From positions 1-60,922 of the forward strand of contig CANQNH010000001.1 in assembly GCA_947625165.1 (NCBI GenBank): a DNA stretch of 60,922 bases, read 5' to 3'. The notes beneath the pieces were generated by a model. It was given only the letters and a program-made list of their open reading frames with translations, had not been told where the DNA came from and did not search any database. The translations under genes and the position numbers were made by a program. Below are positions 1 to 13,956 of the stretch, one piece after another (within the stretch, counting starts at the first letter, position 1; the number at the start of each line of letters is the position of its first letter). This DNA comes from an uncultured Clostridia bacterium. GTDB lineage: Bacteria > Bacillota > Clostridia > Christensenellales > UBA1242.

Positions 1-1
1 G

Positions 2-166
2 GACCTAATTAAAATCACAGGGCTTGGCAGAGATAATGTGAGAAGTTTACTTCGCAGCAAAGATTTTCCAACAACAAAAGTTGGCAAAAGACAAGTTGTC
101 AGCGTGCTAAATTTCGTCACTTGGTTGACAACAAAAAACAACAATGGCGAGGTGCAAAATGGCTAA
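2..166 (+). CDS. helix-turn-helix / excisionase-like DNA-binding protein, C-terminal fragment (5' end outside the window)
   Basis: Frame 2 is open from the window edge to TAA at 164-166. It reads DLIKITGLGRDNVRSLLRSKDFPTTKVGKRQVVSVLNFVTWL, a small MerR/Xis-type HTH pattern. Its end overlaps the integrase start. It is absent from the ORF track because it has no start in the window. Confidence 0.45.
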   Translation, partial: DLIKITGLGRDNVRSLLRSKDFPTTKVGKRQVVSVLNFVTWLTTKNNNGEVQNG

Positions 167-1514
167 GAGTAAAAAATCACAAAGACGAGCAAACGGATCT
201 GGAAGTGTTTTTCAGAGAAAGAACGGAAAGTGGGCAGGTGCTATCACAATTGGCTATGATGACAATGGCGTGCAAAAGAAAAAGGTTGTCTATGGAGGCA
301 CGCGCGAAGAAGTTGAAGAAAAACTTAAAATGTTAGACAACAGGATTAAATCAAACTCTTTTGAAAAGTTGGAGAACAGCAGTGCTGCCGAACTTATGAG
401 AGAGTGGCTGGTGGTATTTAAGAAAAATGTTGTGTTGCCAAAAACATTTTATGGGGATTTGATTATATTTACAAAGCATATTGAGCCGCACTTGAGAAAT
501 TTGCAAATACAGGATGTTGATGATATTGTCATTCAACAAATTTTGAATAAAATGATTGACGCAGATTATAGTTTAAGCATGGTCAAAAAAGTTAAATTTC
601 TTTTCAACAACTTTCTTGATTATGCAGAGGCGGCAAAATGGATTGCATATAATCCGTCTCATAGGGTGCAGGTGAGAATAAAAGACAAGAAAACTTACAC
701 GGGGCAAAACAAATATAAAGCACTGACGCCAGAGAAGCGAACGGAGTTTTTGAAAGCTTTGGACGAAGATCCAAGAAAGTTTTTAAAAGCACTTTGCTAT
801 ACTCTCATGTTCAGCGGTTTGAGAATTGGCGAAGCTTTGGGCTTGCAGTGGAAAAATGTAGATTTGGTCAACAAAACAATAAATGTTGAACAAGCGGCAA
901 ATCTTGTGCCAAAGTTTGATAAAAATCTTAAAGCGAAAATGATAACACAAATTGGCGGAACAAAAACCGCTTGCTCAATCAGAGAGTTGCCTTTGCCAGA
1001 TATTCTTGTGGAGGTTTTGGGCGAGTGGAAAGTCAAACAAGAAAATTTTGGGAAAGAACTTGGAAAAGATTTCACATCACCAGACAGTTTTGTCTTTTGT
1101 GCGGATGATGGCGGAGTGAGAACTTATAACTCTTGCAGGCTTTCTTTCAATCGATTTAAGAAAGCACACAATTTTGAAGACTTAAAAATCACTTTTCACG
1201 GACTTCGTCACACATTTTCAAATATGCTCTTTGAAGCAAATGAAAATCCAAAAGTTATTCAGCAACTTTTGGGACACAAAGATGTTCGCACAACGATTTC
1301 TGTTTACAACAGCGTTGACAAAGATTATGTCAGAAAATCTACGCAAGTTTTTAATGATATGTTTAAGGTCGAAAATCCAAAATTTGTAAATCAAGAAGAG
1401 CCAATTTCAATTGAGACGCATTATGACGAAATGTCCGACCAAGAACTTGAACGAATGTTAAAAGAAATTGAAAGGGCGCAAAGGAGAAAGAAACAAAAAG
1501 ATTTTGAGATGTGA
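144..1514 (+). CDS. int: tyrosine site-specific recombinase (phage-type integrase)
   Basis: N-terminus RANGSGSVFQRKNGKWAGAITIGYDDNG is the typical SAM-like arm-binding region. The C-terminal catalytic motifs are GLRIGEALGLQW, HGLRHTFSNMLF and LLGHKDVRTTISVYNS (R..HxxR..Y). Confidence 0.9.
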   Translation: MARCKMAKSKKSQRRANGSGSVFQRKNGKWAGAITIGYDDNGVQKKKVVYGGTREEVEEKLKMLDNRIKSNSFEKLENSSAAELMREWLVVFKKNVVLPKTFYGDLIIFTKHIEPHLRNLQIQDVDDIVIQQILNKMIDADYSLSMVKKVKFLFNNFLDYAEAAKWIAYNPSHRVQVRIKDKKTYTGQNKYKALTPEKRTEFLKALDEDPRKFLKALCYTLMFSGLRIGEALGLQWKNVDLVNKTINVEQAANLVPKFDKNLKAKMITQIGGTKTACSIRELPLPDILVEVLGEWKVKQENFGKELGKDFTSPDSFVFCADDGGVRTYNSCRLSFNRFKKAHNFEDLKITFHGLRHTFSNMLFEANENPKVIQQLLGHKDVRTTISVYNSVDKDYVRKSTQVFNDMFKVENPKFVNQEEPISIETHYDEMSDQELERMLKEIERAQRRKKQKDFEM

Positions 1515-1606
1515 AATTGCTTGGCACTAAATGTTGAAAATTAGCAGCTTTGACAGTTATAATTTTAAAAAGCCTTGTTCTCAAGGCTTTACATAAGGAG
1601 ATTTAA

Positions 1607-2035
1607 ATGGAAATTGGAGACCAAATAATTAAACGAATGCAGGAAGATGCGAAGAAAAGGCAATTGGAAACGCAAGAGATAAATAGCAAAATTTTAACTA
1701 TTCCAGAAAGTCTTACTGAAGATGAAAAAATCGCTTATGCGGAAATTGTTCAAACTTTGAAAGAAAGCATAGCTTACAGGCTTTCAGCGACCGACACGGA
1801 ACTTATTTGGCAATACTGTCAAATTAAAGTTATGAGAGACAGAGCATGGCGAGAATATAATAAAAATCCAGACAGATATATTCGCATTGTGACAGGGATT
1901 TGTAGTGATGGCAAAACTCCAAAGGTTATGGTGAAAGAAAACGAACACTACAAGACGCTCATTGATTGCAACAAGCAACTTGAAAAAATTTTGAAAGATT
2001 TGCGTTTAACGCCAGAAGCAAGGAGAAAGAAATAA
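1607..2035 (+). CDS. phage terminase small subunit, P27-family-like
   Basis: Size is 142 aa with an AAGGAGA RBS 7 nt upstream. It has a helical N-terminus and the C-terminal LRLTPEARRKK tail typical of P27-type small terminases. The call rests on pattern memory only. Confidence 0.45.
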   Translation: MEIGDQIIKRMQEDAKKRQLETQEINSKILTIPESLTEDEKIAYAEIVQTLKESIAYRLSATDTELIWQYCQIKVMRDRAWREYNKNPDRYIRIVTGICSDGKTPKVMVKENEHYKTLIDCNKQLEKILKDLRLTPEARRKK

Positions 2036-2577
2036 TGGAAGACTTGAAAATTGAATATATTGACATTAACAAATTAACGCATTATGAAAACAACTCAAAA
2101 ATTCATACAAAACAGCAGATAGAGCACATTGCAAACTCAATTCGTGAATTTGGCTTTAATGATCCACTTGGAATTGCTGGCAAAGAGAATGTTGTGCTTG
2201 AGGGGAATGGGCGCGTGGAGGCTGCAAAACTTGTTGGACTGACGAAACTTCCTTGTGTGCGCCTTGACCACATGACAAAGGAAGAACAACAGGCTTATGT
2301 CATCGCACACAACTCGCTTAATCTTGAAACATCTTTCGATGATGGAATTTTATTTCAAGAATTGAAGAAATTGCAAAATTTTGATTTTACAGATTTTGGA
2401 ATTGATGTTGATAAATATTTAAAAACATGCATTCGCGTTCAAAAGCGAATTTTGAAGCCAAATAAGAAAGTTCATTATTTGATTAGCCTTGATATAAACA
2501 AAAATGATGAAATAGCAAATTTAATTGCCAGAATGCAAAGGATAGAAGGGGTGGAAATTGAGTCGACAATCAACTAA
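2035..2577 (+). CDS. ParB/Srx-fold nuclease-like domain protein
   Basis: IDINKLTHYENNSKIHTKQQIEHIANSIREFGFNDPL and VVLEGNGRVEAAKLVGLTKLPCV match the ParB N-terminal domain as found in phage ParB-methylase proteins. Its start overlaps the upstream stop (ATAATG). Confidence 0.65.
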   Translation: MEDLKIEYIDINKLTHYENNSKIHTKQQIEHIANSIREFGFNDPLGIAGKENVVLEGNGRVEAAKLVGLTKLPCVRLDHMTKEEQQAYVIAHNSLNLETSFDDGILFQELKKLQNFDFTDFGIDVDKYLKTCIRVQKRILKPNKKVHYLISLDINKNDEIANLIARMQRIEGVEIESTIN

Positions 2578-3106
2578 AACAGATAACAAATCTATAGCAA
2601 ACAAAATTTTTATTCGCAAAGAGGCGATTAAAGATTTGAAAGAAGTGAAAGTGTTAGATTTGTTTGCTGGAAGAAATGTTCTTTGGAGCAACATTCACAC
2701 TGACAAATATTTTGGAATAGATATTGAGGAACATAAAGGCCAAAATTTAAATGCGGACACAAGAGAAGTTTTTGATACATTAGATTTGTCAGCATTTAAT
2801 GTGATTGATTGCGACAGTTATGGAATAGCTTTTGATTTATATAAAAAACTTTTAAAGCGAAAAGATTTGAAAAAGGGCACAATTATTCTTTATACAGCAA
2901 TCACAAATGAATTTACAAAAATCCAAAATGTTGCTAAAAAAGAGTTTAATTTTAGGCATTTTTATGACAAAGCGCCGTCTCTTTTCAACGCAAGAGCTAT
3001 TGAATTCTTTTATGAATTTTTGGCACTAAACGGGATTGATGAAGTATTTTATTATGCCATTCGTGACCATTTTGATAAACATTATGGATATTTTATTGTC
3101 AAATAA
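2558..3106 (+). CDS. small SAM-dependent methyltransferase-like protein
   Basis: VLDLFAG resembles SAM-binding motif I. VIDCDSYG resembles the D-x-D-P-(F/Y)-G motif of Trm1/RsmD-like methyltransferases. The TTG start lies 20 nt inside the ParB-like ORF, suggesting translational coupling. Confidence 0.4.
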   Translation: MSRQSTKTDNKSIANKIFIRKEAIKDLKEVKVLDLFAGRNVLWSNIHTDKYFGIDIEEHKGQNLNADTREVFDTLDLSAFNVIDCDSYGIAFDLYKKLLKRKDLKKGTIILYTAITNEFTKIQNVAKKEFNFRHFYDKAPSLFNARAIEFFYEFLALNGIDEVFYYAIRDHFDKHYGYFIVK

Positions 3107-3142
3107 TTTCAAATTTTTTTGCGTTTGTGCTATAATTTTTGC

Positions 3143-3979
3143 ATGAGCGTTATTTATCGGCCGTGTGGCATGGCGAGAGAATATAGTCCCTTCGCGCTGA
3201 ACATTTACATCGGGTGCAGTCATAGATGCAGATATTGTTATGCACCGCACACTTTGCAAAAGTCAAGTGCGACATATTTTGGCAAGCCGGAGCCACGAAA
3301 GGATATTTTAAAATATTTGGAAAAAGACTTGCAAAAAAATGTTTACAAAGAGCAGGTGCTTTTGTCTTTTGTTGGAGATGTTTATTGTGACAACGCGGAC
3401 AATAGCGCCACAACGCGCGAAGTGTTGAAGATGCTATGTGCCTATCATGTGCCGGTGGCAGTTCTTTCAAAAGGTGGAAAGAAAATGCTACGCGATTTGG
3501 ATGTTTTCAAAACATTTGGCGACCGCATAACTGTTGGAACAACGCTGACATTTTTGGATGAAGAAAAGAGTAAATATTGGGAGCCGTTTGCCGCACTTCC
3601 AAGCGAGAGGCTTGAAACTTTGAAAATTTTGCACGACAACGGCATTAAAACTTTTGCAAGTTTTGAGCCGACAATTGAGCCTGACGAAAGTTTGGCACTT
3701 ATTCGCAAAACGCTGGAACTTGACTGTGTGGACCACTATAAAATTGGCAAAATTAACAACTACAAAAGTGAAGACAAATGGCAAGATTGGGCAAAATATT
3801 TGCAAGATTGTGTGAATTTGCTTCGCCCGACCGGCAAACAAGTGTATTACAAGTTTTGCCTCAGAAAACTCGCGCCAAATGTTGAACTTTTGCTGGAAGA
3901 GCAAAATCCAGATGAATACATAGTCCGCGCGACTGATGAGGGCGTGCAAACAAGTTTGTTTGATGGAGATTTGCAATGA
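3143..3979 (+). CDS. radical SAM protein, SplB / DNA-photolyase-like (COG1533-like)
   Basis: REYSPFALNIYIGCSHRCRYCYAP carries the CxxxCxxC cluster in the sequence context typical of spore-photoproduct-lyase-like enzymes. The ORF opens at 3119. ATG 3143 lies 6 nt after a TGcTATAAT box; ATG 3170 is an alternative start. Confidence 0.7.
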   Translation: MSVIYRPCGMAREYSPFALNIYIGCSHRCRYCYAPHTLQKSSATYFGKPEPRKDILKYLEKDLQKNVYKEQVLLSFVGDVYCDNADNSATTREVLKMLCAYHVPVAVLSKGGKKMLRDLDVFKTFGDRITVGTTLTFLDEEKSKYWEPFAALPSERLETLKILHDNGIKTFASFEPTIEPDESLALIRKTLELDCVDHYKIGKINNYKSEDKWQDWAKYLQDCVNLLRPTGKQVYYKFCLRKLAPNVELLLEEQNPDEYIVRATDEGVQTSLFDGDLQ

Positions 3980-4326
3980 AAACGGGATATTTTGGAAAAG
4001 TGAGAAGTTATCCAAAGGACAAGGGATATCGCTTTGTCTCCATTGCGCGGTTTGCCAAGTTTTGGGACGGAGATACATATCAAAAACTCGCGCCACCGGC
4101 AGATATTATTAAAATCAAAGACGAAAAACTTTATGAAAAAATTTATTATGAAAAAGTGCTCTCAAAGTTGAATCCGCAACAAGTGTATGACGAACTTGGT
4201 GAAAACGCCGTGCTTTTGTGTTATGAAAAATTTGCCGACATTGAAAATGGCATAACTTTTTGTCATCGCAGAATGGTGGCAAAGTGGCTGGAAGACAATT
4301 TGGGCGTGAAGGTGGATGAGTTATGA
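3976..4326 (+). CDS. DUF488-like protein
   Basis: N-terminus is MKTGYFGKV..SIARF. The C-terminal VLLCYEKFADIENGITFCHRRMVAKWL matches the LLC-E...CHR..a.wL signature I associate with DUF488. Start and stop both overlap neighbours (ATGA). Confidence 0.4.
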   Translation: MKTGYFGKVRSYPKDKGYRFVSIARFAKFWDGDTYQKLAPPADIIKIKDEKLYEKIYYEKVLSKLNPQQVYDELGENAVLLCYEKFADIENGITFCHRRMVAKWLEDNLGVKVDEL

Positions 4327-5261
4327 TTTTAAGCGTTTCGAGGCGGACGGATGTGCCGGCATTTTATAGCGATTGGTTTTTTGACAGGTTGAAAGATGGG
4401 TTTGTGCTTGTGCCAAACCCTATCAACCAGCAAAAGATTGCGCGGCTTGAGTTGAAGCCAATCAAAATCGAAAGCATTGAAGAAGATATGCTGGGCAATA
4501 AAAAAGTTGAGATGAGTGGCAATTTGGAGGGGATTGTCTTTTGGACAAAAAATCCGCGACCGATGATGAGCCGGCTCCAAGAACTTGGGGACATAAAATA
4601 TTATTTTCTCTACACGGTCAACCCATATCCAGCGAAGATTGAAGCCAATTTGCCACCATTGGAAGAGAGAATTGAAAGCTTTAAGGAACTTTCCAAATTT
4701 TGTCCCGTGATTTGGCGTTATGACCCGATTTTGCTGGCTGACGGAATTGATATTGAGTGGCATATTGAACATTTTGCAAAGTTGTGTGAAAATTTGAAGG
4801 ACTACACAAAACACTGCAAAATCAGTTTTGTGATTGAGAGTTATTCGGGCTGCTCGAAAAGCGTTTGGGCACCAAATCTCACGCAAAAGCACCAAATTTT
4901 GTCCGCCTTTTCAAAAATTGCAAAACAAAACGGCATTCAAATTGAGGCGTGTGCCGAAAGCGGGGATTGGAGCGCTTATGACATTGTGCCAAGCAAGTGC
5001 ATTGATGGCGAGATCTTTGAGAAACTGCTCACTGAAAAATTTTCCGCACAAAATTTGACCGTTAAACGCAAAAATAACAAACTTGACGGGCAGCGAAAAT
5101 TCTGCGGATGTATGCCATCGGTGGATATTGGCCGCTATGATACCTGTCGCCACGGCTGCAACTATTGTTATGCGCGAAAAGGCCAGCCCAAAAGTATGCT
5201 TGACGAACTTTCCGGCGAAATTTATGACCGCAAAACCGAACTTGAATTTGAGTATAAATAG
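4323..5261 (+). CDS. DUF1848 domain protein (radical-SAM-like C-terminal Cys cluster)
   Basis: N-terminus MILSVSRRTDVPAFYSDWFFDRLKDGFV and C-terminus CGCMPSVDIGRYDTCRHGCNYCYA are the hallmark ends of DUF1848. Confidence 0.7.
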   Translation: MILSVSRRTDVPAFYSDWFFDRLKDGFVLVPNPINQQKIARLELKPIKIESIEEDMLGNKKVEMSGNLEGIVFWTKNPRPMMSRLQELGDIKYYFLYTVNPYPAKIEANLPPLEERIESFKELSKFCPVIWRYDPILLADGIDIEWHIEHFAKLCENLKDYTKHCKISFVIESYSGCSKSVWAPNLTQKHQILSAFSKIAKQNGIQIEACAESGDWSAYDIVPSKCIDGEIFEKLLTEKFSAQNLTVKRKNNKLDGQRKFCGCMPSVDIGRYDTCRHGCNYCYARKGQPKSMLDELSGEIYDRKTELEFEYK

Positions 5262-5272
5262 GAGAAATTTTT

Positions 5273-5689
5273 ATGGACGAATTTACTGAAATCAAAGATG
5301 AAAAACAATTGAATAATTTTTTAGATGAAATTTGGAATTTTCATGATGGGGTTATTTCAAAGATAGAATATGTTTCTGGCTCTTCTGGTTCAAAGGACGG
5401 AACTTATCCAATTGATAAAAATCCAAGAATTTTGCTGAGAATTGAAGGTTGTAATTATAACGAAACAACTATTGACGGAGTTGAACTTTTGTTTGAGGGC
5501 TTGATAAAGGCTTTTATTTCGCCGACAAGAGAAAATTACACTAGTAATATACTTGGTGCAAATATAGTATTAAAAAATAACAAATTTATATTTGTGAATG
5601 ATATTGACGATGATGTGGACAAAATTAACACTGACGAAAGATGTAATTATTATGTCATGGCAGAAAAATTAAGCTATAGATTGTCTTAG
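5273..5689 (+). CDS. hypothetical protein (small, beta-rich, immunity-protein-like pattern)
   Basis: Has a GGAGA RBS and codon usage like its neighbours, and is followed by a strong terminator. No recognisable motif. Confidence 0.55.
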   Translation: MDEFTEIKDEKQLNNFLDEIWNFHDGVISKIEYVSGSSGSKDGTYPIDKNPRILLRIEGCNYNETTIDGVELLFEGLIKAFISPTRENYTSNILGANIVLKNNKFIFVNDIDDDVDKINTDERCNYYVMAEKLSYRLS

Positions 5690-5740
5690 GCAGTTTAAAA
5701 GCGTAAAATATTTGCAAAATTTGAGATTTAGGTGTAAAAT

Positions 5741-5778
5741 AGGTGTATAAGGAGTGAAAACTTATACACCTATTTTTC
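5741..5778 (+). terminator. rho-independent terminator
   Basis: AGGTGTATAAG / CTTATACACCT forms an 11-bp stem with a 9-nt loop, followed by ATTTTTC. Confidence 0.7.
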
Positions 5779-5870
5779 TTTGCCTATTGTGAACAACCGA
5801 AAAACAAAGGGGAACAGGTGGCAAGAGCAGTTGATTGCGGGCGGAGAGAACACTTCCTTCGTAATCAATA

Positions 5871-5902
5871 GGTCGTGGGTCCGATTCCCACCACCAGCTC
5901 CA
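5871..5902 (+). other. orphan tRNA/tmRNA 3'-end stub (T-arm plus acceptor 3' strand); putative att-site remnant
   Basis: GTGGG-TCCGATT-CCCAC is a T-arm, followed by CACCAGCTCCA. CAGCTCCA equals the E. coli ssrA / tRNA-Ala-type acceptor end. No complementary 5' acceptor strand or anticodon arm lies within 400 nt upstream, where a CDS and its terminator sit. Confidence 0.5.
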
Positions 5903-5950
5903 TATGATCTATGTGCAAGAAATGAACACTTTTTATTGGACTAGACATAC

Positions 5951-5977
5951 AAAAACTCCCTAAAATTGGGAGTTTTT
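5951..5977 (-). terminator. bidirectional hairpin downstream of the transposase
   Basis: AAAAACTCCC-TAAAATT-GGGAGTTTTT is flanked by A/T runs on both sides. Confidence 0.55.
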
Positions 5978-5982
5978 GTGTT

Positions 5983-7113
5983 TTAAGTGGGGAGATTTGC
6001 CCAATATTCATCTTCAAACTGGTTAGGGGTTTTATTATTTAGTGTCCCATGAGGGCGGTAATTGTTGTAAAATTCAATATACTTATCAACACATTCTTTC
6101 AATTCGTCATAGTATTCAAAGTCATGTGAATTTAATTCTTCCTTTTTCATGCAAGCAAAAAATGATTCTATAACTGCATTATCATAAGGGTTGCCTTTCT
6201 TTGAGAAAGATTGGTCAACTTTCAGCGAATGCAAAAACATGCGAAATTCCTGCGAAGTGTATATGTAGCCTCGGTCGCTATGGAATAGAAGATTTTTAGG
6301 ATTATTTCGGCTTTCAAAAGCATCTTTGAAAGTGTTAATTATGAGTTGAGTGTTTTCTTGACTTGATAATCTATATGCAATTACCTTTCTAGAAAACAGA
6401 TCTAAAATTACGCACAAAGTGAATAAAGCTTTGCCGACATACAACTTTGTTGTGTCGCTAACCCATGAAACATTTGGTGCGTGCGGATTGAATTCTCGAT
6501 TTAGTTTATTCTTTAAATATTTGAACTTTCCTTCCTGTTGTATGAAAGTCCGCTTTTTGCGAAGCTTTGGCTTTATGTTTAAAACTTTCATTAATTCATA
6601 GACTTTGAGTTCGGAAACTTTTATGCCTTCCGCCTTCAATTTTTTGCAAATTTTATTGCCGCTGAATCTTCCTTCGCTTTCATCGAAAACTCGCTTTATT
6701 TGTTCTTTGAGAAAATTGTCGCGTTTTTCATATTGAGTTTCGACCAATCTGCTTTTACGATAATTATAGAAAGTACCGGTTGGCAATGCTAAAACGCGAC
6801 ACATTTCTTTTGTTGGGTATTGACCAAATAGCGATTCAATAGCTTCAAGTTTTTGTTGCCTAGGGGAGTCTTTGAAACAATGTGCTTTTTCCATTATTTC
6901 AAATTCACGAAGTTTCTTGTCGTATTTGTTTTGAAGACGGATGTAATCACCAATGGTATATTGAGTTTTGTCCGTGAGCATTTTATATCTGCCAATCCAG
7001 TAAAACAAAGTGGACTTTGCAATGCCATACTTTGATATCACAAACTCGATATCCTTGCATTGATTGTATTCCGAAACAACTTGCATCCTAAATTCTTTAG
7101 TGTAATTTTCCAT
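5983..7113 (-). CDS. IS3-family transposase (HTH plus DDE rve domain in a single ORF)
   Basis: N-terminal HTH (GIAKSTLFYWIGRYK). The rve core reads WVSDTTKLYV...LDLFSRKVIAYRLS...FHSDRGYIYTS...GNPYDNAVIESFFACMKKE...YNNYRPHGTLNNKTP (D, D, E). There is no frameshift split. Confidence 0.85.
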   Translation of the reverse strand: MENYTKEFRMQVVSEYNQCKDIEFVISKYGIAKSTLFYWIGRYKMLTDKTQYTIGDYIRLQNKYDKKLREFEIMEKAHCFKDSPRQQKLEAIESLFGQYPTKEMCRVLALPTGTFYNYRKSRLVETQYEKRDNFLKEQIKRVFDESEGRFSGNKICKKLKAEGIKVSELKVYELMKVLNIKPKLRKKRTFIQQEGKFKYLKNKLNREFNPHAPNVSWVSDTTKLYVGKALFTLCVILDLFSRKVIAYRLSSQENTQLIINTFKDAFESRNNPKNLLFHSDRGYIYTSQEFRMFLHSLKVDQSFSKKGNPYDNAVIESFFACMKKEELNSHDFEYYDELKECVDKYIEFYNNYRPHGTLNNKTPNQFEDEYWANLPT

Positions 7114-7178
7114 TTTTTATTCCCTTTTTGTTGATAAATATGTTATTATATAATCATAAAACAATGGAGAAACGCAAT

Positions 7179-8159
7179 ATGGATAAAAAATTTCAAGTTT
7201 TTATAAGTTCGACTTATAGCGACCTTATTGAAGAACGTAAAAGTGTGCAACAAATTCTGCTTTCACAAAATTGCATACCAGCTGGGATGGAAAATTTCGT
7301 GGCCGAAGACAGAAAACAACTAGAAGCAATAAAACGAATAATAGATTTATGTGATTATTATATTTTAATTATAGGGGGTCGCTATGGGACAATAGATCCT
7401 GAAACGGGCAAAAGCTATACTGAATTGGAGTTTGAATATGCTGAATCAATTAATATTCCAATTTTAGTGTTTGCAGTCCAAGAAGATAAAAAATTTAAAA
7501 AAGGTAGATCTGAAGACTCAGAGGACAATAGGGCAAAGTTAAAAGCTTTTAGAGAAAAAGCTTTATATCAAAGATTAGGAGGGATTTGGAGCAACAAAAG
7601 TAAACTTGTGCAATTGGTATCCTCATCTATTGCAAAAGCAATAGAAACGGTAAAACGGCCAGGCTGGATTAGGGGGAGCGAATTAAAGATAGAAAATTCA
7701 GATGAGACACAGGACTACATTACTCAGATTGAAAACTTAAAGAAAGAAAACGAAGATTTAAAAAAGCGTATTAAAGAAATTACGACTTCAAATAAAAATT
7801 TAGCTTTTGAAAACTGTAAATACAATATAAGGTATAGAAAATTTTATAGAGATAAGTATGGAGTTGAAAAATCTAAAAAAAGAACAAAGAGAACAACACT
7901 AAGCGAAATATTTAAATACATATCATTAGAAATGAGCGGATATATGCTTCCGAAGTTGAATTTAGAAAAGATTTTAAAAGACTTTATAGATTCAAAATCA
8001 AAGATAGAGTTTGTTGATAATCAGGTGTTAGATACTTTGATTAACCAATACAAAGGTTTAGGCTTAATACAGCAAATAGTAGACAGTGGGGTTTATAAAT
8101 ATAAACTTACTGATAAAGGTGAAAAAGAAAAGAACAAGTTAAATTTATTAAAAAAATAA
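7179..8159 (+). CDS. DUF4062 (TIR/NDT-like fold) - coiled coil - winged-helix-like protein
   Basis: FQVFISSTYSDLIEERKSVQQILLSQNCIPAGMENFVAEDRKQLEAIKRIIDLCDYYILIIGGRYGT...SYTELEFEYAESINIPILVF matches the DUF4062 signature (vFiSST..DL..ER ... cD.yi.i.g.rYG ... tE.Ey). A coiled coil (IENLKKENEDLKKRIKEI) follows. The C-terminus ends GLIQQIV..GVYKYKLTDKGEKE, which looks like a winged helix. ATG 7179 has a GGAGA RBS 8 nt upstream. Confidence 0.65.
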   Translation: MDKKFQVFISSTYSDLIEERKSVQQILLSQNCIPAGMENFVAEDRKQLEAIKRIIDLCDYYILIIGGRYGTIDPETGKSYTELEFEYAESINIPILVFAVQEDKKFKKGRSEDSEDNRAKLKAFREKALYQRLGGIWSNKSKLVQLVSSSIAKAIETVKRPGWIRGSELKIENSDETQDYITQIENLKKENEDLKKRIKEITTSNKNLAFENCKYNIRYRKFYRDKYGVEKSKKRTKRTTLSEIFKYISLEMSGYMLPKLNLEKILKDFIDSKSKIEFVDNQVLDTLINQYKGLGLIQQIVDSGVYKYKLTDKGEKEKNKLNLLKK

Positions 8160-8165
8160 AAATAT

Positions 8166-8184
8166 TTGATTTTCGCAAAATCAA
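8166..8184. repeat. cassette-boundary hairpin, copy 1 (TTGATTTT-CGC-AAAATCAA)
   Basis: Perfect 8-bp AT-rich inverted repeat 6 nt after the stop at 8157-8159. The same element recurs at 10552, 11121 and 13961. Right-arm-only copies (AAAATCAAA) lie at 8196-8204, 8753-8761 and 9212-9220. Confidence 0.8.
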
Positions 8185-8193
8185 ACGGCTGTC

Positions 8194-8258
8194 GCAAAAT
8201 CAAAATTTGATTATTTTTGATTTATTTTGATTTTTAATCAAAATATGTTATAATCGCA
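8194..8258 (+). promoter_or_regulatory. duplicated promoter-like block with iterated TTTGATT motifs (copy 1)
   Basis: GCAAAATCAAAATTTGATTATTTTTGATTTATTTTGATTTTTAATCAAAATATGTTATAATCGC contains TTGATT (8227-8232), a 16-nt spacer and TGtTATAAT (8246-8254). It is near-identical to 9210-9275. Confidence 0.55.
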
Positions 8259-8280
8259 ATATCAAAACGAAAAATCAAAA

Positions 8281-8342
8281 GTCGACTTTTTGGGGCATAC
8301 AGCCATATAAAACGAGTAAGTTGTCTTAAATGAGAGGGGGAA
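8281..8342 (+). repeat. shared promoter/5'UTR module, copy 1
   Basis: GTCGACTTTTTGG-(variable GC-rich)-CCATATAAAACGAGTAAGTTGTCTTAAATGAGAGGGGGAAATG. The conserved blocks fit TCGACT-18-TATAAA plus a ~30-nt UTR and a GAGGGGG RBS. It recurs at 8763, 9326 and 10635. Confidence 0.75.
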
Positions 8343-8747
8343 ATGAAGATATTACTAATTTGCAGCAAGGCTTTTTATGATAAATTAACTGATTATAAAG
8401 AAAGACTTGAAAAATTGGGGCATGAGATTTTTATGCCGAATTGCTGGAATTGTCCAGAAACTGAAGCAAAATATAGGGGAACGAAATGGCATGCTTCTTG
8501 GAAAGCCAGCATGATCAGACATAGTGAAGAAGTTATAAGTGAAATGGATGCAGTTTTGGTTTTAAATTTTGATAAAGGCTCTCAAAAAAATTATATTGGT
8601 GGAGCAACTTTCTTGGAAATTTATGATGCATTTAGGTTGGGCAAGAAAATATTTTTTATAAACGACATTCCGCAAAATATGCTGCAAGATGAACTGATAG
8701 GCTTTTCTCCAAAAGTCATACATGATGATTTGACAAAAATAGTTTAA
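8343..8747 (+). CDS. nucleoside 2-deoxyribosyltransferase-like (NDT-fold) protein
   Basis: MKILLICSKAFYDKL...LEKLGHEIFMP...EVISEMDAVLVLNFDKGSQKNYIGGATFLEIYDAFRLGKKIFFIND follows the NDT-like layout: N-terminal strand, G..v..P, then the D.vv.l...yiG.gt..E...A...gK.i tail. Confidence 0.5.
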   Translation: MKILLICSKAFYDKLTDYKERLEKLGHEIFMPNCWNCPETEAKYRGTKWHASWKASMIRHSEEVISEMDAVLVLNFDKGSQKNYIGGATFLEIYDAFRLGKKIFFINDIPQNMLQDELIGFSPKVIHDDLTKIV

Positions 8748-8762
8748 TTGTTAAAATCAAAG

Positions 8763-8824
8763 GTCGACTTTTTGGCGGTAACTCCCATATAAAGTAAGTA
8801 AAAAGTCTAATTTGAGGAAAAAAT
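8763..8824 (+). repeat. shared promoter/5'UTR module, copy 2
   Basis: GTCGACTTTTTGGCGGTAACTCCCATATAAAGTAAGTAAAAAGTCTAATTTGAGGAAAAAATATG aligns block-for-block with copy 1. Confidence 0.7.
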
Positions 8825-9205
8825 ATGAGAGAAGAAAATTTGATTGAAATTTTTATGTCAAATGCTATTGAATCAGCTGTCGATGTTGATTATGGAAATA
8901 AAGCGGAAATAAAAAAACACAATAAGGCAATTGAAAACTATCGTAAAATTGCAGAAAAAATAAAGAAGAAAGGTGATTCTTCAGAAATAGACAATTTTGT
9001 TGAATTGTTAAATAATGATAATTGGGACATTAAAATAGCAAGTTCTGTATGTATTATTGAGATTTTAGATTTAGAAGAATATAAAGAAAAGGCTTTATTG
9101 ACAATTAAAGAATATTTGGAATATTTAAAATCGCACGCAACTACGCAACATGAAAAAATAAACAAAATAGGGTTTGAATTATACTTAAAAAAATACAGTA
9201 AGTAA
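8825..9205 (+). CDS. DUF2019-like HEAT/helical protein (immunity-protein-like)
   Basis: LIEIFMSNAIESAVDVDYGNKAEIKKHNKAIENYRKIAEKIKKKGD...FVELLNNDNWDIKIASSVCIIEIL resembles the DUF2019 pattern. The call is from memory only. Confidence 0.4.
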   Translation: MREENLIEIFMSNAIESAVDVDYGNKAEIKKHNKAIENYRKIAEKIKKKGDSSEIDNFVELLNNDNWDIKIASSVCIIEILDLEEYKEKALLTIKEYLEYLKSHATTQHEKINKIGFELYLKKYSK

Positions 9206-9209
9206 TTCT

Positions 9210-9275
9210 GCAAAATCAAAATTTGATTATTTTTGATTTATTTTGAATTTTTAATCAAAAAATGAGTTATCGCAA
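9210..9275 (+). promoter_or_regulatory. duplicated promoter-like block with iterated TTTGATT motifs (copy 2, degenerate -10)
   Basis: GCAAAATCAAAATTTGATTATTTTTGATTTATTTTGAATTTTTAATCAAAAAATGAGTTATCGC has only a few substitutions relative to 8194-8258. Confidence 0.5.
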
Positions 9276-9325
9276 AATAATTTCGCGAAAAACTTCGTGG
9301 CGTTCGCTGGCGCTCGGCAACAAAA

Positions 9326-9387
9326 GTCGACTTTTTGGCGGGGATGGCCATATAAAGTAAGTAAATTGTCTTAATTGAGAGGGGGAA
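9326..9387 (+). repeat. shared promoter/5'UTR module, copy 3
   Basis: GTCGACTTTTTGGCGGGGATGGCCATATAAAGTAAGTAAATTGTCTTAATTGAGAGGGGGAAATG. Confidence 0.75.
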
Positions 9388-9720
9388 ATGGACACATCTT
9401 TTTATTGGGAGAACAGGTTGCATGATGCGGACATTATTGATTGCAAAGAAATTACATTTGACTATAATGTAAAAGACAAAAATCCCATACGGAATTGTCT
9501 TGAACTTATTATAAATAGCAGTCATGCTTTATATGATACAAGCATTAAGGGAATAAAACTATATAATTATAAAATCTTGTCTGATTTAAAAAATCCAAAA
9601 AATCTCTGGTGGAAAGAAGATAAGCTTGAAACAAAAGAAAACAAACTTATCTTAACAATTTATGGACACAATAATGAAGTCTTTGTTGTTAGATTTGACA
9701 AAGGAGAAACTATCAAATAA
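9388..9720 (+). CDS. hypothetical small protein
   Basis: Preceded by the shared RBS module. 110 aa with no motif recognised. Confidence 0.55.
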   Translation: MDTSFYWENRLHDADIIDCKEITFDYNVKDKNPIRNCLELIINSSHALYDTSIKGIKLYNYKILSDLKNPKNLWWKEDKLETKENKLILTIYGHNNEVFVVRFDKGETIK

Positions 9721-9764
9721 TAAGTGTTTCTCTTAAAAAATATAAGTAAAAAAAGGAAAACAAA

Positions 9765-10211
9765 ATGTTTCAATATAGAGTATCAAAATATAATCCTAAA
9801 CTTAGAGATGAAAATCAAGCCTATGCAAAGGAAGAATGGACATCATATAGCGATATTGGCAAAAAATTCTCTGATGGGACACTTTCCGAAAAAGAGTACT
9901 TAAAAGTTGAGAAAGAGTATATTGATTTTATTTATGGTCTTTTTAATGAATTTAAAATTGAAAAAATAAAGATATTAAAACAAGAGCCTAAAAATATTTT
10001 TAAAAAGACGTCTTTTGATGTAGATGATAAATGGTTATATACTCTCATTCAGAAAAATATTAGAGAAGAATTTTGGTGCAAGTTTAAAACAAAGCAATTT
10101 GAAATTTATATGGGATATGATTTTTATTTACACATTGATTTTACAAATGATACTGAAAAACTCTTGGAACAATTAGCCAAGAAACACAATCTATTTTTAG
10201 AAAAAGATTGA
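9765..10211 (+). CDS. hypothetical small protein
   Basis: AAGGAAAA RBS region; 148 aa; no motif recognised. Confidence 0.5.
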   Translation: MFQYRVSKYNPKLRDENQAYAKEEWTSYSDIGKKFSDGTLSEKEYLKVEKEYIDFIYGLFNEFKIEKIKILKQEPKNIFKKTSFDVDDKWLYTLIQKNIREEFWCKFKTKQFEIYMGYDFYLHIDFTNDTEKLLEQLAKKHNLFLEKD

Positions 10212-10237
10212 ATTTTTTATTTTTTAACGGAGTGTAT

Positions 10238-10555
10238 ATGAAAAGAGTTAATATTGCCTATGATTATGACTATGACGAAGAAACAGAGAAAACTATTGTC
10301 AATGGAAAAGTTGATATAATTGAATTGCCTGATGAAATAATTAAAAATATCGATTATTATGTGCAAAAGTTTTTTGACTGGGCGGCTAACAAATCGAATG
10401 GTTGTTTCCATTATGATATCACTCTAAAAAAAGATGTTTGTCAGATTGTAAGCGAAGATTTTGTCAGGTATATAAACAACGAACTTAAAATGCAAGCAAA
10501 TGTAATTGAAGTAAATGTGGACATTAATCCCAATTTACCCATTGTTGAATTTTGA
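10238..10555 (+). CDS. hypothetical small protein
   Basis: ATG 10238 has GGAG 6 nt upstream. The track ORF starts at TTG 10208, in frame. The stop codon lies inside boundary hairpin copy 2. Confidence 0.5.
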   Translation: MKRVNIAYDYDYDEETEKTIVNGKVDIIELPDEIIKNIDYYVQKFFDWAANKSNGCFHYDITLKKDVCQIVSEDFVRYINNELKMQANVIEVNVDINPNLPIVEF

Positions 10556-10570
10556 TTTTCGCAAAATTAA
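10552..10570. repeat. cassette-boundary hairpin, copy 2 (imperfect)
   Basis: TTGATTTTCGCAAAATTAA overlaps the TGA stop at 10553-10555. Confidence 0.7.
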
Positions 10571-10634
10571 ACTGTTCTCGCAAAATATAGCTGAAGTCTT
10601 GGTGACGCTGCGCGGTTGTTATAAACGAAAAAAC

Positions 10635-10708
10635 AAAAGTTAATTTTCTGCCGGTTGCAGCCATATAAAACGAGTCGTTTATCTTAATTGGGGGGGGGAG
10701 AAAAATAT
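10635..10708 (+). repeat. shared promoter/5'UTR module, copy 4 (diverged -35 block)
   Basis: ...GTTAATTTTCTGCCGGTTGCAGCCATATAAAACGAGTCGTTTATCTTAATTGGGGGGGGGAGAAAAATATATG. The -10 and UTR blocks are conserved, and the RBS is a G9 tract. Confidence 0.6.
10690..10698 (+). repeat. G9 homopolymer in the RBS of the 10709 gene
   Basis: Nine consecutive G, counted directly in the sequence. Confidence 0.9.
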
Positions 10709-11119
10709 ATGCAGATTGAAGAATTTTGTGGTTGTCTTGAAGGCTCGGATCAAGATTGGTTTACTGGTGATGCGGAGACTGGCGGCATTGAATATTGGAA
10801 ATCTTTGAAAGAGAATGAAAAATCAAAGGTTAGGCACTTTATTTTTGAAAAGTATGGAGATATGCAATCGCCAACAGAAACTTGTGTTTTTGAACCATTT
10901 GGAAAATTTATAGAAATTCTTTCACTTTGTGGTGACAAAAATGATATTCTTTTCGTGAAAAAACTTTTTATGGAAACACAATCAAAAAATATGGCATTTT
11001 ATATTGCCAATGTGTGTGAGTTTCCAAAAGATTTTCTTTTAAGTAAACTCGAGAAATTTGACAGTTTGGATGAATACGAACAAAGAATTATTGAGCAGAT
11101 AAAAAACAGACCTAATTGA
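10709..11119 (+). CDS. hypothetical small protein
   Basis: ATG 10709 follows the G-rich RBS. The track start at 10688 is an in-frame TTG inside that RBS. 136 aa with no motif. Confidence 0.5.
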   Translation: MQIEEFCGCLEGSDQDWFTGDAETGGIEYWKSLKENEKSKVRHFIFEKYGDMQSPTETCVFEPFGKFIEILSLCGDKNDILFVKKLFMETQSKNMAFYIANVCEFPKDFLLSKLEKFDSLDEYEQRIIEQIKNRPN

Positions 11120-11120
11120 T

Positions 11121-11139
11121 TTGATTTTCACAAAATCAA
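11121..11139. repeat. cassette-boundary hairpin, copy 3
   Basis: TTGATTTT-CAC-AAAATCAA has perfect arms and starts 2 nt after the TGA at 11117-11119. Confidence 0.8.
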
Positions 11140-11239
11140 AGTGCGGTTGAGAAGTGTTTGTGATGGTGTTTGCTAAGAGTGAAAAAATCTGTTTTTTATC
11201 GCAAAGAAACATAGAAAAAGAATTTTTGAAGGAGTGGTG

Positions 11240-11761
11240 ATGAGTAAATTTTATTGTGAAATATACCAATTGAAAAACATTTTAAGAAAAGGTTGGCTTA
11301 TAAGTAACGCTGGCAATGTCAATACTGGTCGTGTTGAAAGTGATGCAGAGCATACCTTTTCTATGTGTATGTTGGCAATGGAGACTATGACGAAATCCGA
11401 CAAATATAAAAATCTTGACCAACTTAAAGTTTACAAAATGATTCTTGTTCACGAACTATGTGAAATAGATGCAGGGGATCACACGCCTTATGATGAGATT
11501 TCACAACAAGAAAAATACAATATGGAACTTGCTTGCGTAAAAAGAATCGCCAAAGATTGTGAAATGCCGGAATTGTTGGTTTTGTGGAAAGAATTTGAAG
11601 AAAATGAAACTGCTGAAGCACAATTTGTGAAAAAGATGGACAGACTTGATGCAATAATGCAAGCAAAAATCTATTCAGATGAAAGAAAAAATAATGAATT
11701 GTTCAATGAATTTAAAAATAATTATAAAAAAATTGCAGATGAATTTGAGCTTTATCTTTAA
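11240..11761 (+). CDS. HD-domain phosphohydrolase (YfbR-like 5'-deoxynucleotidase family)
   Basis: ESDAEHTFSMCMLAM and LVHELCEIDAGDHTPYD supply the H...HD...D metal ligands in YfbR-like spacing. The RBS is AAGGAG. Confidence 0.65.
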   Translation: MSKFYCEIYQLKNILRKGWLISNAGNVNTGRVESDAEHTFSMCMLAMETMTKSDKYKNLDQLKVYKMILVHELCEIDAGDHTPYDEISQQEKYNMELACVKRIAKDCEMPELLVLWKEFEENETAEAQFVKKMDRLDAIMQAKIYSDERKNNELFNEFKNNYKKIADEFELYL

Positions 11762-11836
11762 CAGTTGTTGTATTTAGTGCACAAAAATTATGGAAAAATG
11801 TTGAAAAATGCGAAATTTTTTGAGGAGAGAAAATTT

Positions 11837-12514
11837 ATGAAAAGAGTAATCTTAACGGGTGCAAGTGATGGTTTGGGAAAAGAAGTTGGAAAACTGTTTT
11901 TGTCGGGGGGGGGAGAAGTTGTTGCTCTTTGCCGAACAAAGCCAGAATATGATTGCAAATTCATCAAGTGCGATTTGTCCGATGAAAAATCAATGACTAA
12001 GGCGTGCGAAATCATCAAAGAAAAATATCCTGAATTTGATGCGCTGATAAATTGTGCGGGAACTCAATGTATTGAGCCGACAAACAACACTCCTTATGCA
12101 AAATTGGACTATGTGATGAAAGTCAACACGATTGCGCCAATGTTTTTGATTTGTCAGTTGTTTGACCTGATAAAGCAAAACGAGGCAGACATCGTGAATG
12201 TTGGCTCAACTGTGGGTTTGAAATCTGGCCCAATCAATCAGGTTGGATACACAACTTCAAAATGGGCCATTCGTGGAACAAGTGCAAATATTGAGGCGGA
12301 ACTCAAAAACACCGCTTGCAGAGTTATCCAATTCAATGCTGGTGGGATGAACACAAGGTTTGTTGAGAAATATAACGGGCAGAAAATTTCCGATGTAGAT
12401 GCAAAAGAGTGGATTGACCCAAAGGATATGGCAAAAGTTTTGTTGATGACTTTGCAAGTTCCAAAAAACATTGAGATAAGTGACATTTGCGTGAACAGAA
12501 AAAGAAAGAAATAA
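11837..12514 (+). CDS. short-chain dehydrogenase/reductase (SDR)
   Basis: MKRVILTGASDGLGKEVG is the TGxxxGxG Rossmann motif. NCAG and YTTSKWAIRG (YxxxK) are also present. The CDS contains a G9 tract at 11905-11913 encoding GGG. Confidence 0.75.
   Translation: MKRVILTGASDGLGKEVGKLFLSGGGEVVALCRTKPEYDCKFIKCDLSDEKSMTKACEIIKEKYPEFDALINCAGTQCIEPTNNTPYAKLDYVMKVNTIAPMFLICQLFDLIKQNEADIVNVGSTVGLKSGPINQVGYTTSKWAIRGTSANIEAELKNTACRVIQFNAGGMNTRFVEKYNGQKISDVDAKEWIDPKDMAKVLLMTLQVPKNIEISDICVNRKRKK
11905..11913 (+). repeat. G9 homopolymer inside the SDR CDS
   Basis: Nine consecutive G encoding Gly-Gly-Gly. A +/-1 slip would frameshift the gene. Confidence 0.9.
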
Positions 12515-12556
12515 AGCGGTGTTGAGAGGTTTCAATTCGTGTGAACAGGAGAGGAT

Positions 12557-13348: not shown

Positions 13349-13407
13349 AAAGAGACAACTGCTTGCTTGTTGCGACAAATTTGAAAGTCTTATCGAAAGG
13401 AGATTAT

Positions 13408-13956
13408 ATGAAGATAATTTATCAAACAGAAAGATTGATTGTTCGGCGATGGCAGATGAAGGATTATCGCGATTATTTTGAGTTTGTAAGCATTCCAGAT
13501 GTTTCAAAATATCTCAATTTCCAGCCTTACAAAACACTCAATCAGGCAAAAGAAAGAATTGCGAATATGATTGCTGCGTATGAAACAGAGCCTGTTAAAG
13601 CGGATTTTGCAATTGTGCTTAAAGCAGAAAACAAAGTTATTGGAAGTGTTGCGATAAACAGTTTTAAACCAAGTGCGGACGGTGTGGTTGGAATTGGCTA
13701 TATGTTGAACCCTAAATATCAAGGGAAAGGCTATGTGACAGAGGCTGTTGTTGGGCTTTTTAAGTATATCAAGCAGAACAATATTGCAAAACGGATTGAA
13801 GCAACTTATGATGTCGAAAATGTCAAGAGCGGAAATGTGATGAAACGAGCAGGTATGACCTTTGAGGGAATAAAACGAAAGGCTGGACAAAACAATTTAC
13901 ATTCAAGATACGATGTTGCTTTATATTCAATTCTTTTTGAGGAAATAAAAGACTGA
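13408..13956 (+). CDS. GNAT N-acetyltransferase (RimJ/RimL-like)
   Basis: MKIIYQTERLIVRRWQMKDYRDYFEFVS is the typical RimJ-like N-terminus. YQGKGYVTEAV is the acetyl-CoA loop. The RBS is AAAGGAG. Confidence 0.75.
   Translation: MKIIYQTERLIVRRWQMKDYRDYFEFVSIPDVSKYLNFQPYKTLNQAKERIANMIAAYETEPVKADFAIVLKAENKVIGSVAINSFKPSADGVVGIGYMLNPKYQGKGYVTEAVVGLFKYIKQNNIAKRIEATYDVENVKSGNVMKRAGMTFEGIKRKAGQNNLHSRYDVALYSILFEEIKD

Follow-up and report, generated by a model that had tools for sequence, protein, structure and literature searches.

Post-replicative modification of phage DNA with the help of ParB-like proteins, or by a radical S-adenosylmethionine (SAM) enzyme resembling spore photoproduct lyase (SPL), is already known. 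O'Toole et al. (2026, PMC13229309) found that a phage ParB homologue without a DNA-binding domain is needed for the action of a thymine dioxygenase on double-stranded DNA, and that ParB-type modification pathways are found together with terminases (19%). Lee et al. (2021, PMC8989533) reported that gp53 of phage M6, an SPL-like radical SAM enzyme, isomerises Nα-glycinylthymidine on DNA, and described it as the first radical SAM enzyme with a role in installing a modification on DNA. Here, we compare these systems with a locus on a stretch of 60,922 nucleotides (nt) from an uncultured gut Clostridia bacterium (contig CANQNH010000001.1), referred to as the window throughout. Its genes for a short ParB-like protein, a protein with a predicted SAM-methyltransferase fold (ORF182, an open reading frame (ORF) of 182 amino acids (aa)) and a radical SAM protein (rSAM) are followed by those for a DUF488-type protein (D488, also ORF116) and a DUF1848 protein. 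The core module of this locus is abundant and chemically unusual.

Eight forward-strand genes occupy positions 144-5689 of the window (Table 1). The best explanation of the stretch 1607-5689 is a single seven-gene operon of phage origin on a small integrase-terS island. Our reading of this operon is ParB-assisted post-replicative modification of the element's own DNA, to which we assign a rough probability of 45%, i.e., slightly below even odds. The initial annotation had proposed a cassette for DNA modification or lesion reversal on a mobile element. The genes indeed lie on an element bearing an integrase and terS, and the predicted genes, the ATGA overlaps at 3976 and 4323 and the three cysteine motifs were all recovered in place. 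DNA modification stands as the best reading, every component being of a DNA-enzyme or SAM-enzyme type, but lesion reversal is without specific support because no SPL match was obtained for rSAM.

The pair 5mYOX176 and ParB176 (PMC13229309) resembles the locus in that a short phage ParB without an obvious DNA-binding domain stands beside a post-replicative base-modifying enzyme, is needed on double-stranded DNA and often lies near terminases. The partner there is an Fe(II)/2-oxoglutarate dioxygenase, however, whereas the partners at our locus are a predicted SAM-fold protein and predicted radical SAM enzymes. Phage M6 gp53 (PMC8989533) offers the parallel of a phage SPL-like radical SAM enzyme acting on a modified base within DNA. 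It works with a 5-hydroxymethyldeoxyuridine kinase, an amino-acid transferase and a pyridoxal-phosphate-dependent decarboxylase, none of which is present here, and it has no BLAST-detectable similarity to the window rSAM. SplB likewise is a radical SAM enzyme with a CxxxCxYC-type motif and, as is presumed for rSAM, a DNA substrate, but the window rSAM is shorter, has other partners and a phage context, and gives no sequence or profile match to it. Finally, phage ParB-DNA methyltransferase fusions (PHROG 498, PADLOC MTase_II) combine a ParB N-terminal domain with a SAM-fold partner, as do the overlapping ParB and ORF182 genes and a true ParB-ORF182 fusion; unlike the partner in the PHROG 498 and MTase_II proteins, ORF182 is not of the N6_N4_Mtase or Dam type, and the module also has rSAM. 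No description of, or experimental work on, the ParB-ORF182-rSAM module was found in the searchable literature. As to the earlier statement that no described system has this composition, there are partial precedents in PMC13229309, in PMC8989533 and, among Pfam entries, in DUF488-N3a, DAM-like-phage1 and GNAT-phage-like.

The phage unit of ParB, ORF182 and rSAM

At least 563 relatives of rSAM were found in IMG/VR, a collection that takes in prophage regions. Here and below, neighbourhoods were counted in the best 80 loci per scan, with genes called by a simple longest-ORF rule; 15 of the 80 rSAM loci are cut off upstream. Of the 80 viral rSAM loci, 57 have a short ParB gene, which in 42 stands two genes before rSAM (position -2), and 49 have an ORF182-like gene, which in 44 is the gene just before rSAM (position -1). 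In 38 loci the three genes follow one another strictly as ParB, ORF182, rSAM, the arrangement also seen in the window. Spacing is preserved as well: the ParB and ORF182 genes overlap by a median of 20 nt in the viral loci, as they do in the window (2558-2577), and ORF182 and rSAM are separated by a median of 39 nt (36 nt in the window). TerL (Terminase_3, 3e-48) was identified in 46 of the 80 loci, at position +2 in 26 of them, with portal genes next. D488 was found in a single locus, and the sole match to the DUF1848 model in these loci is the rSAM gene itself.

In the complete circular phage genome of Dulem virus 36, a ParB gene is followed consecutively by genes for a hypothetical protein of 190 aa and for a protein annotated as "PA0069 family radical SAM protein", the last of which is 58% identical to the window rSAM. 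No cultured phage with a close rSAM homologue was found, and GenBank labels members of the module as hypothetical proteins. The unit conserved across phages is ParB-ORF182-rSAM, usually located just 5' of terminase and portal genes. The functional link that the initial annotation had drawn between ParB, ORF182 and rSAM is borne out by this distribution.

The ParB-like protein scores 20.3 bits against ParB_N (PF02195), under the Pfam cut-off of 26.3. PHROG 620, annotated as "ParB-like partition protein", matches it at 4.3e-38, as do 17 further ParB-type PHROGs at other scores. Where ParB CTPases have a GERR box, the window protein carries GNGR. It aligns with the N-terminal part of the ParB-methylase fusions mentioned above (PHROG 498, 3.9e-35; PADLOC MTase_II, 1.4e-22).

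No match to ORF182 was obtained in Pfam, NCBIfam, PHROG or PADLOC; its 217 close homologues are all about 182 aa long and have no Pfam domains. The AlphaFold2 model (mean predicted local distance difference test score, pLDDT, 84.9) retrieves Trm1 (3axs, E 6e-6) as the top Foldseek match, followed by TYW2, CmoA and others. In total, 89 PDB matches were found at E<=1e-3, all listed ones being SAM-dependent enzymes, and in BFVD the model matches viral methyltransferases. Two motifs are conserved, VLDLFAG, corresponding to motif I, and NVIDCDSYG, which is motif IV-like; at the position of the latter we take Trm1 to have D-x-D-P-F-G. No DNA-methyltransferase family was matched, and DCDSYG stands in place of DPPY. 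The predicted structure supports a class I SAM-binding or methyltransferase fold for ORF182, and no firmer methyltransferase call. A viral member of the family (L284; L-numbers denote fetched loci) gives weak matches to Methyltransf_31 and Trm1. The possibility that ORF182 is a shortened Dam-like domain was rejected, since hhalign against the cluster of Dam-like-GNAT proteins gave a probability of 0.3%. The family is large, with 779 representative clusters at E<=1e-3 in a library of 1.84 billion proteins, and includes natural fusions: in P0379 ORF182 is joined to a ParB_N domain (E 8e-15 against the window ParB), and in P0438 and P0460 to an N-terminal HNH endonuclease-like domain.

The fusions to HNH domains and the genomic neighbourhood lead to a second reading, in which the module assists the terminase in packaging. 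ParB would then be a nuclease or clamp, like HNH proteins in cos phages, ORF182 and rSAM would mark or process pac or cos sites or DNA ends, the DUF488-N3a protein would trim end phosphates, and the island would hijack the packaging of a helper. The module adjoins terS, TerL and portal genes in most viral loci, terS lies directly 5' of it in 13 related Clostridia loci, and an island with an integrase and terS but no structural genes resembles a satellite. Position does not discriminate, however, as late-expressed phage methylases also usually sit just 5' of the terminase. Moreover, a SAM-fold protein combined with a radical SAM enzyme would be strange equipment for cleaving ends, a nuclease motif has not been demonstrated in ParB, and the loci L004-L008 retain the trio of rSAM, D488 and DUF1848 genes without terS. 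We regard a role in packaging as rather unlikely.

For rSAM, the start is most likely ATG 3143 (278 aa) rather than TTG 3119, because homologues begin with MSIIYRP. The motif reads GCSHRCRYCYAP in the translation, with the cluster CSHRCRYC, and Radical_SAM (PF04055) is matched with 42.5 bits (cut-off 29.5). Scores against NCBIfam models of neighbouring families stay far below the cut-offs: PA0069 (NF033668) 8e-21 and 74.4 bits (cut-off 360), Rv2578c (NF038135) 51.6 (cut-off 430), with residues 11-186 aligned. As judged from these profile scores, rSAM is a distant PA0069/Rv2578c-type relative and not a family member. The models of the radical SAM mobile pair, TIGR04470 (B, 51.7 bits against 410) and TIGR04471 (A, 14.3 against 355), match the same rSAM protein, a distinct A-type gene being absent. 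Searches of the PDB by sequence and by profile gave no match for rSAM, D488 or DUF1848; in particular, NCBIfam yielded no SPL model for rSAM at E<=0.1, and at E<=1 neither the rSAM sequence nor its profile retrieved an SPL chain from the PDB.

The resemblance to SplB on which the initial annotation had built is accordingly one of distant superfamily membership. This bears on the idea that the SPL-like enzymes mend a specific photoproduct or adduct in host or element DNA, which we consider highly improbable. It can draw on nothing beyond the weak PA0069 and Rv2578c matches and the CxxxCxYCYA signature, which is also that of "DNA repair photolyase" proteins of the COG1533 type. Besides the missing SPL match, the obligate partners, i.e., ParB and a methylase-fold protein beside phage terminase genes, do not form a repair context, and there is no SOS or sporulation context. 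As for the other family calls, radical SAM and DUF1848 were confirmed above the Pfam cut-offs, DUF488 through homologues and ParB through PHROG, but a true SplB was not, and the methyltransferase stands as a SAM-binding fold only.

The DUF488-type and DUF1848 genes and their shuffling

D488 itself has no Pfam match at E<=0.1. Among 194 homologues, 26 were aligned at full length (47-88% identity), 12 of which match PF22751 (best 1.1e-13) and 6 PF04343 (DUF488). Pfam names PF22751 "DUF488-N3a, Active DUF488-N3 subclade". The protein reads LLCYE...FCHR, and the signature LLC.E...CHR is conserved among the homologues, with E84, C96, H97 and R98 invariant and C82 present in at least 90% of the sequences. 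Because of the "active" subclade and the invariant Cys-His-Arg, D488 is more likely an enzyme than the adaptor that it had initially been taken for. Burroughs and Aravind, in 2023, are said to have predicted DNA-end processing for enzymes of the DUF488 clade, which would speak for the packaging reading, and we presume that the DUF488-N3a, Dam-like and GNAT Pfam families were defined by them in the same work.

D488 has 308 relatives in IMG/VR. Its usual partners were studied in 158 D488-anchored loci, drawn both from genomes and from IMG/VR. In 39 of these, the gene directly 3' of D488 encodes a protein of about 434 aa that combines PF22555 (DAM-like-phage1) and PF22559 (GNAT-phage-like), here called Dam-like-GNAT, and in 33 a ParB_N-like protein is encoded at position +2; 41 loci contain all three. 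Genes for terS, TerL, AAA, ParB-HTH, DUF3150 and RadC proteins are often nearby. This triad of PF22751, PF22555/PF22559 and ParB shares with our locus the D488 family, the ParB partner, the phage setting with terS and TerL, and an occurrence in the same clade of Clostridia metagenome-assembled genomes (MAGs). The window differs in having no Dam-like-GNAT protein but rSAM and DUF1848 instead, and the unrelated ORF182. ORF182 and Dam-like-GNAT never co-occur near D488 in the 158 loci, which suggests substitution.

The DUF1848 protein matches PF08902 with 289.2 bits (cut-off 30.5), and an exact-sequence look-up gave no match. Its C-terminal motif is TCRHGCNYCYA, in which C275, C279 and C282 are invariant in 31 sequences. 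The AlphaFold2 model (pLDDT 85.8) is TIM-barrel-like and has only weak Foldseek matches, to TIM barrels and to the cores of PFL-AE, NifB, RlmN and LipA (E 0.008-0.02; about 150-185 alignment columns). When rSAM was compared by hhalign with a tandem-duplicated DUF1848 alignment, residues 272-312 were joined to 1-137 with a probability of 93%. These results suggest that DUF1848 may be a circularly permuted radical-SAM-type enzyme; we go no further than that because the cysteine motif gives most of the score (89% for its 13 columns alone).

In 76 viral DUF1848 loci, neither D488 nor rSAM nor ParB was found beside DUF1848. The neighbour met most often, in 15 of 76, is a methylase-like ORF of 304 aa at position -1, and a methylase-UvrD-helicase protein is encoded 3' of DUF1848 in 5-6 viral loci. 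A related methylase-like ORF of 217 aa lies directly 5' of DUF1848 in two Clostridia chromosomes, and close relatives of DUF1848 (69-76% identity) are not accompanied by rSAM and D488. Since ORF182 stands with rSAM and a c1-type methylase with DUF1848, a dyad of a methylase-fold protein and an SPL-like or permuted radical SAM enzyme is seen twice independently. Methyltransferase-like ORFs with a GxGxD motif were observed 5' of DUF1848 at L169:7084-7998, L326:4344-4997 and L330:4333-4989. In L330, DUF1848 is followed by an ORF of 268 aa, an RVT_1 reverse transcriptase of 538 aa and an ATPase of the AAA_15/21 type.

DUF1848 is also known as the partner of a methylase-fused UG25 reverse transcriptase (Mestre et al. 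2022, PMC9226505), and the window protein matches the corresponding PADLOC model RTasDUF1848 with 2.6e-40. Both systems pair DUF1848 with a methyltransferase-type domain. Unlike in UG25, there is no reverse transcriptase in 144-5689 or among ten ORFs screened in 7128-13956, and DUF1848 is coupled to DUF488-N3a and rSAM. The match to a partner of defence-type reverse transcriptases nevertheless raises the question whether the operon is an anti-phage defence or addiction cassette, with enzymes that would damage or tag DNA entering the cell or make up a system that tells self from non-self by modification. Reverse transcriptase and ATPase genes near DUF1848 in L330, AAA_21/RloB and OLD-like ATPase genes flanking related Clostridia loci, and the DUF4062 protein and IS3 element downstream in the window would fit this view. 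It is improbable all the same: the ParB-ORF182-rSAM core and the D488 families lie overwhelmingly on viral contigs beside packaging genes, ParB, ORF182, rSAM and the partners of the D488 triad match no PADLOC system apart from generic DUF488 similarity and RTasDUF1848, and the operon is without an effector such as a nuclease, toxin or NTPase sensor.

D488 normally occurs in the triad with Dam-like-GNAT and ParB, and DUF1848 elsewhere with its own methylase-like partner. We therefore infer that the locus is a composite of DNA-modification-type modules, which D488 and DUF1848 joined from other phage modules. The coupled trio of rSAM (278 aa), the 116-aa protein and DUF1848 was recovered, near-identical and with the same overlaps as in the window (there ATG 3976-3978 with TGA 3977-3979, ATG 4323-4325 with TGA 4324-4326), in the rabbit-gut Clostridia MAGs L004-L008. 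In these MAGs it stands after a helix-turn-helix (HTH) gene and before NUDIX and HD genes. The last ~45 nt of ORF182 remain 5' of rSAM in L004; therefore, ParB and ORF182 were lost there secondarily. A chromosomal operon unrelated to the integrase-terS-ParB-ORF182 genes was considered as the origin of the trio and is ruled out by this remnant together with L009, L019, L025 and L028, all of which keep terS-ParB-ORF182-rSAM.

A genome scan with the ORF116 alignment yielded 80 loci, and among the related Clostridia/Christensenella MAGs the gene order varies widely. L009 shows terS-ParB-ORF182-rSAM-DUF1848-D488, L019 and L025 terS-ParB-ORF182-rSAM-D488, and L028 int-terS-D488-ParB-ORF182-rSAM. In L013, terS-D488-Dam-like-GNAT-ParB is followed by terS-ParB and then by rSAM-DUF1848, while DUF1848 lies 2-3 kb away from D488 in L030 and L024. 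Hybrids with the triad are found in L031 (terS-D488-Dam-like-GNAT-rSAM) and in L041 and L045 (rSAM-D488-Dam-like-GNAT-ParB). Thus, the trio that had been proposed as a unit is coupled only in the close relatives L004-L008 and reshuffled elsewhere, and the neighbourhood counts that had been suggested as a check do not associate DUF1848, DUF488 and rSAM in viral loci. A comparison of L009:7030-8010 with window positions 3958-3979 and 4310-4326 reveals that in L009 the 3' end of rSAM carries a D488-type junction, GAGTTATGA, before DUF1848, and that a second copy of the rSAM 3' end, TTTGATGGAGATTTGAAATGA, stands in front of D488. Read as junction remnants, these sequences show that cassettes moved by recombination at gene ends. 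Versions of the module in related MAGs are flanked by AAA_21 and RloB genes and by pairs of AAA_15/21 (OLD-like) and DUF3854 genes (L022:10586-12536, L009:2699-4500), which are typical neighbours in defence islands.

The ratio of nonsynonymous to synonymous substitution rates (dN/dS) between the window and L004 is 0.052 for rSAM, 0.065 for D488 and 0.039 for DUF1848. Against L009, values of 0.129 (terS), 0.008 (ParB), 0.021 (ORF182), 0.040 (rSAM), 0.055 (DUF1848) and 0.081 (D488) were obtained. Such low values indicate strong purifying selection, and hence the genes are real and selected rather than chance ORFs. They also bear on whether the locus is a decaying prophage remnant, in which the genes are neighbours by descent and shuffling and act alone or not at all. 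No structural genes are present, an IS3 element is inserted downstream, ORF138 is inserted at the end of the operon, L004 has lost ParB and ORF182, and the gene order is shuffled among relatives, all of which decay would explain. Yet dN/dS is 0.008-0.13 for all six genes, the tight overlaps are kept, including the 20-nt ParB/ORF182 overlap conserved across phages, and no fewer than five different architectures contain the same partners, so that we consider decay quite improbable.

Both L004 and L009 keep the promoter-like sequence at 3108-3136. From this candidate site the genes rSAM, D488 and DUF1848 may be transcribed by themselves, possibly as a leaderless message, which would explain the survival of the trio without ParB and ORF182 in L004.

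Layout of the island

The features of the locus are collected in Table 1. The terS-like protein matches PF05119 with 29.2 bits (cut-off 24.7) but stays below the cut-off of 45.6 for NCBIfam TIGR01558, with 28.3. Base 2035 is common to the end of terS and the start codon of ParB.

Table 1. Genes and other sequence features of the island and its immediate surroundings in the window.
Feature	Position	Strand	Evidence and remarks
Tyrosine integrase, 456 aa	144..1514	+	PF00589 Phage_integrase 3.4e-25; PHROG 1 5.5e-62; left end of island and contig
Promoter-like site TTGAAA-18-TATAAT, 5' of terS	1534..1563	+	11/12 matches; consensus scan alone; candidate operon promoter
P27-family terS-like protein, 142 aa	1607..2035	+	Terminase_4 PF05119; PHROG 83 5e-9
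Short ParB_N-like protein, 180 aa, no HTH domain, GNGR box	2035..2577	+	PHROG 620 4.3e-38
ORF182, predicted class I SAM-methyltransferase-fold protein	2558..3106	+	AlphaFold2 model, Foldseek; no hidden Markov model family match
Promoter-like site, extended -10 (TGcTATAAT)	3108..3136	+	Consensus scan; ends 6 nt before rSAM ATG
Radical SAM enzyme (rSAM), 278 aa, N-terminal CxxxCxxC	3143..3979	+	PF04055 1e-10; PHROG 13321 2e-29
DUF488-N3a-type protein (D488), 116 aa	3976..4326	+	PF22751/PF04343 through homologues; PHROG 2450 1.6e-20
DUF1848 protein, 312 aa, TIM-barrel-like, C-terminal CxxxCxxC	4323..5261	+	PF08902 4.9e-86
ORF138	5273..5689	+	Last gene of the + strand run; no family match
Perfect 16-nt inverted repeat (I13)	5736..5776		3' of ORF138, within 180 nt common to L004; candidate terminator or boundary element
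IS3-type transposase	5983-7113	-	ORF screen
DUF4062 protein	7128-8159		PF13271 2.4e-29; PHROG 15411 5.7e-73

Neither TerL nor portal, capsid or tail genes were found among the ORFs screened in 144-13956, and megablast of positions 1-9000 against GenBank phages gave no match. No att-like direct repeat connects the first 143 nt with the region past ORF138, the left end of the island lying off the contig, and no tRNA gene was found beside the integrase. The element is a short integrase-terS island, remnant or satellite-like, and not a complete prophage. Two tRNA-Ser genes on the reverse strand (GCT and GGA anticodons) are located far from the island, at 30356-30446 and 37904-37993.

ORF138, for which searches in Pfam, NCBIfam, PHROG and PADLOC gave no match, is an insertion relative to L004, where 24 nt stand in place of window positions 5261-5685. 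A homologue (2e-29) is located between rSAM and D488 in L032 (6617-7033); because it recurs inside another version of the module, ORF138 may be a module-associated accessory. Downstream of it follow the stretch common to L004 (5686-5865), the IS3-type transposase, the DUF4062 protein, small genes without assignment and housekeeping-type genes (HD_3, FabG-like, acetyltransferase). The IS3 element, the DUF4062 gene and small ORFs up to about 9300 form a small variable islet where L004 has a NUDIX gene after DUF1848. Repeated intergenic cassettes of 69-77 nt, which are 64-82% identical, were observed at 8194-8352, 8758-8834 and 9210-9397. They carry the palindrome AAAAGTCGACTTTT together with an AT-rich GCAAAATCAAAATTTGATT... 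unit, precede three small forward-strand ORFs without family matches (8343-8747, 8825-9205 and 9388-9720), and resemble a repeated promoter/operator unit or a cassette array.

A proposed role in DNA modification

The modification of the element's own DNA is supported by several lines of evidence: the conserved phage unit, the P0379 fusion, the fold predicted for ORF182, the match of ParB to ParB-methylase fusions, the parallel DUF1848 dyad, the triad of D488, Dam-like-GNAT and ParB, the published precedents, and purifying selection. By analogy with O'Toole et al. (2026) and Lee et al. (2021), we propose the following pathway, in which the choice of DNA as substrate, the succession of the steps and the benefit in protection are all provisional. 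The short ParB-like protein would load or activate the enzymes on double-stranded DNA, ORF182 would install or present a SAM-derived group on a base, and rSAM would then perform a radical step on the DNA-bound substrate. D488, as a Cys-His-Arg enzyme of the rhodanese/phosphatase type, and DUF1848 may extend or alter the chemistry in this lineage. DNA modified in this way could be marked as self and shielded from restriction during packaging and transfer of the element.

Several observations weigh against this pathway. Modification of a DNA base is something we infer from the genes rather than direct evidence, and no cultured phage or strain with the module was found. ORF182 has no canonical (D/N/S)PP(Y/F) motif, and its matches are to tRNA and small-molecule methyltransferases, not to those acting on DNA. 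No similarity of rSAM to SPL or to phage M6 was detected; M6 is not among the 15 phage records matched by BLAST. D488 and DUF1848 are outside the conserved core, so that the sole grounds for placing them in the same pathway are that they share the operon and recur in a few related MAGs. The trio of L004-L008 persists under selection without ParB or ORF182 and thus does not strictly need them. Furthermore, the HNH-ORF182 fusions and the constant terS/TerL neighbourhood fit a packaging or nuclease role equally well, and the island itself is without TerL, portal and capsid genes.

A wider proposal, which we put forward more tentatively, is that ParB-ORF182-rSAM constitutes a widespread, undescribed phage pathway, in which a ParB activator, a SAM-fold transferase and a DNA-directed radical SAM enzyme together install a DNA base modification, possibly extended at this locus to hypermodification by D488 and a permuted radical SAM enzyme, DUF1848. 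If true, this would be the first functional assignment of DUF1848 and DUF488-N3a, as DNA-modification enzymes. We know of no radical SAM enzyme other than gp53 of phage M6 that helps to install a DNA modification, and ParB-like activators of DNA base modification were, to our knowledge, shown only in 2026. Should the module serve packaging or defence instead, it would still represent an unstudied, widespread phage function. Modified DNA would be reached by a new route if a conserved, abundant phage module next to the packaging genes made it with ParB, a SAM-fold protein and a radical SAM enzyme. Such a route would matter for the way in which gut phages evade restriction, for enzyme tools and for the interpretation of metagenomic and nanopore data. 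For DUF1848, DUF488-N3a and the ORF182 family, three families without a function, the locus provides testable contexts.

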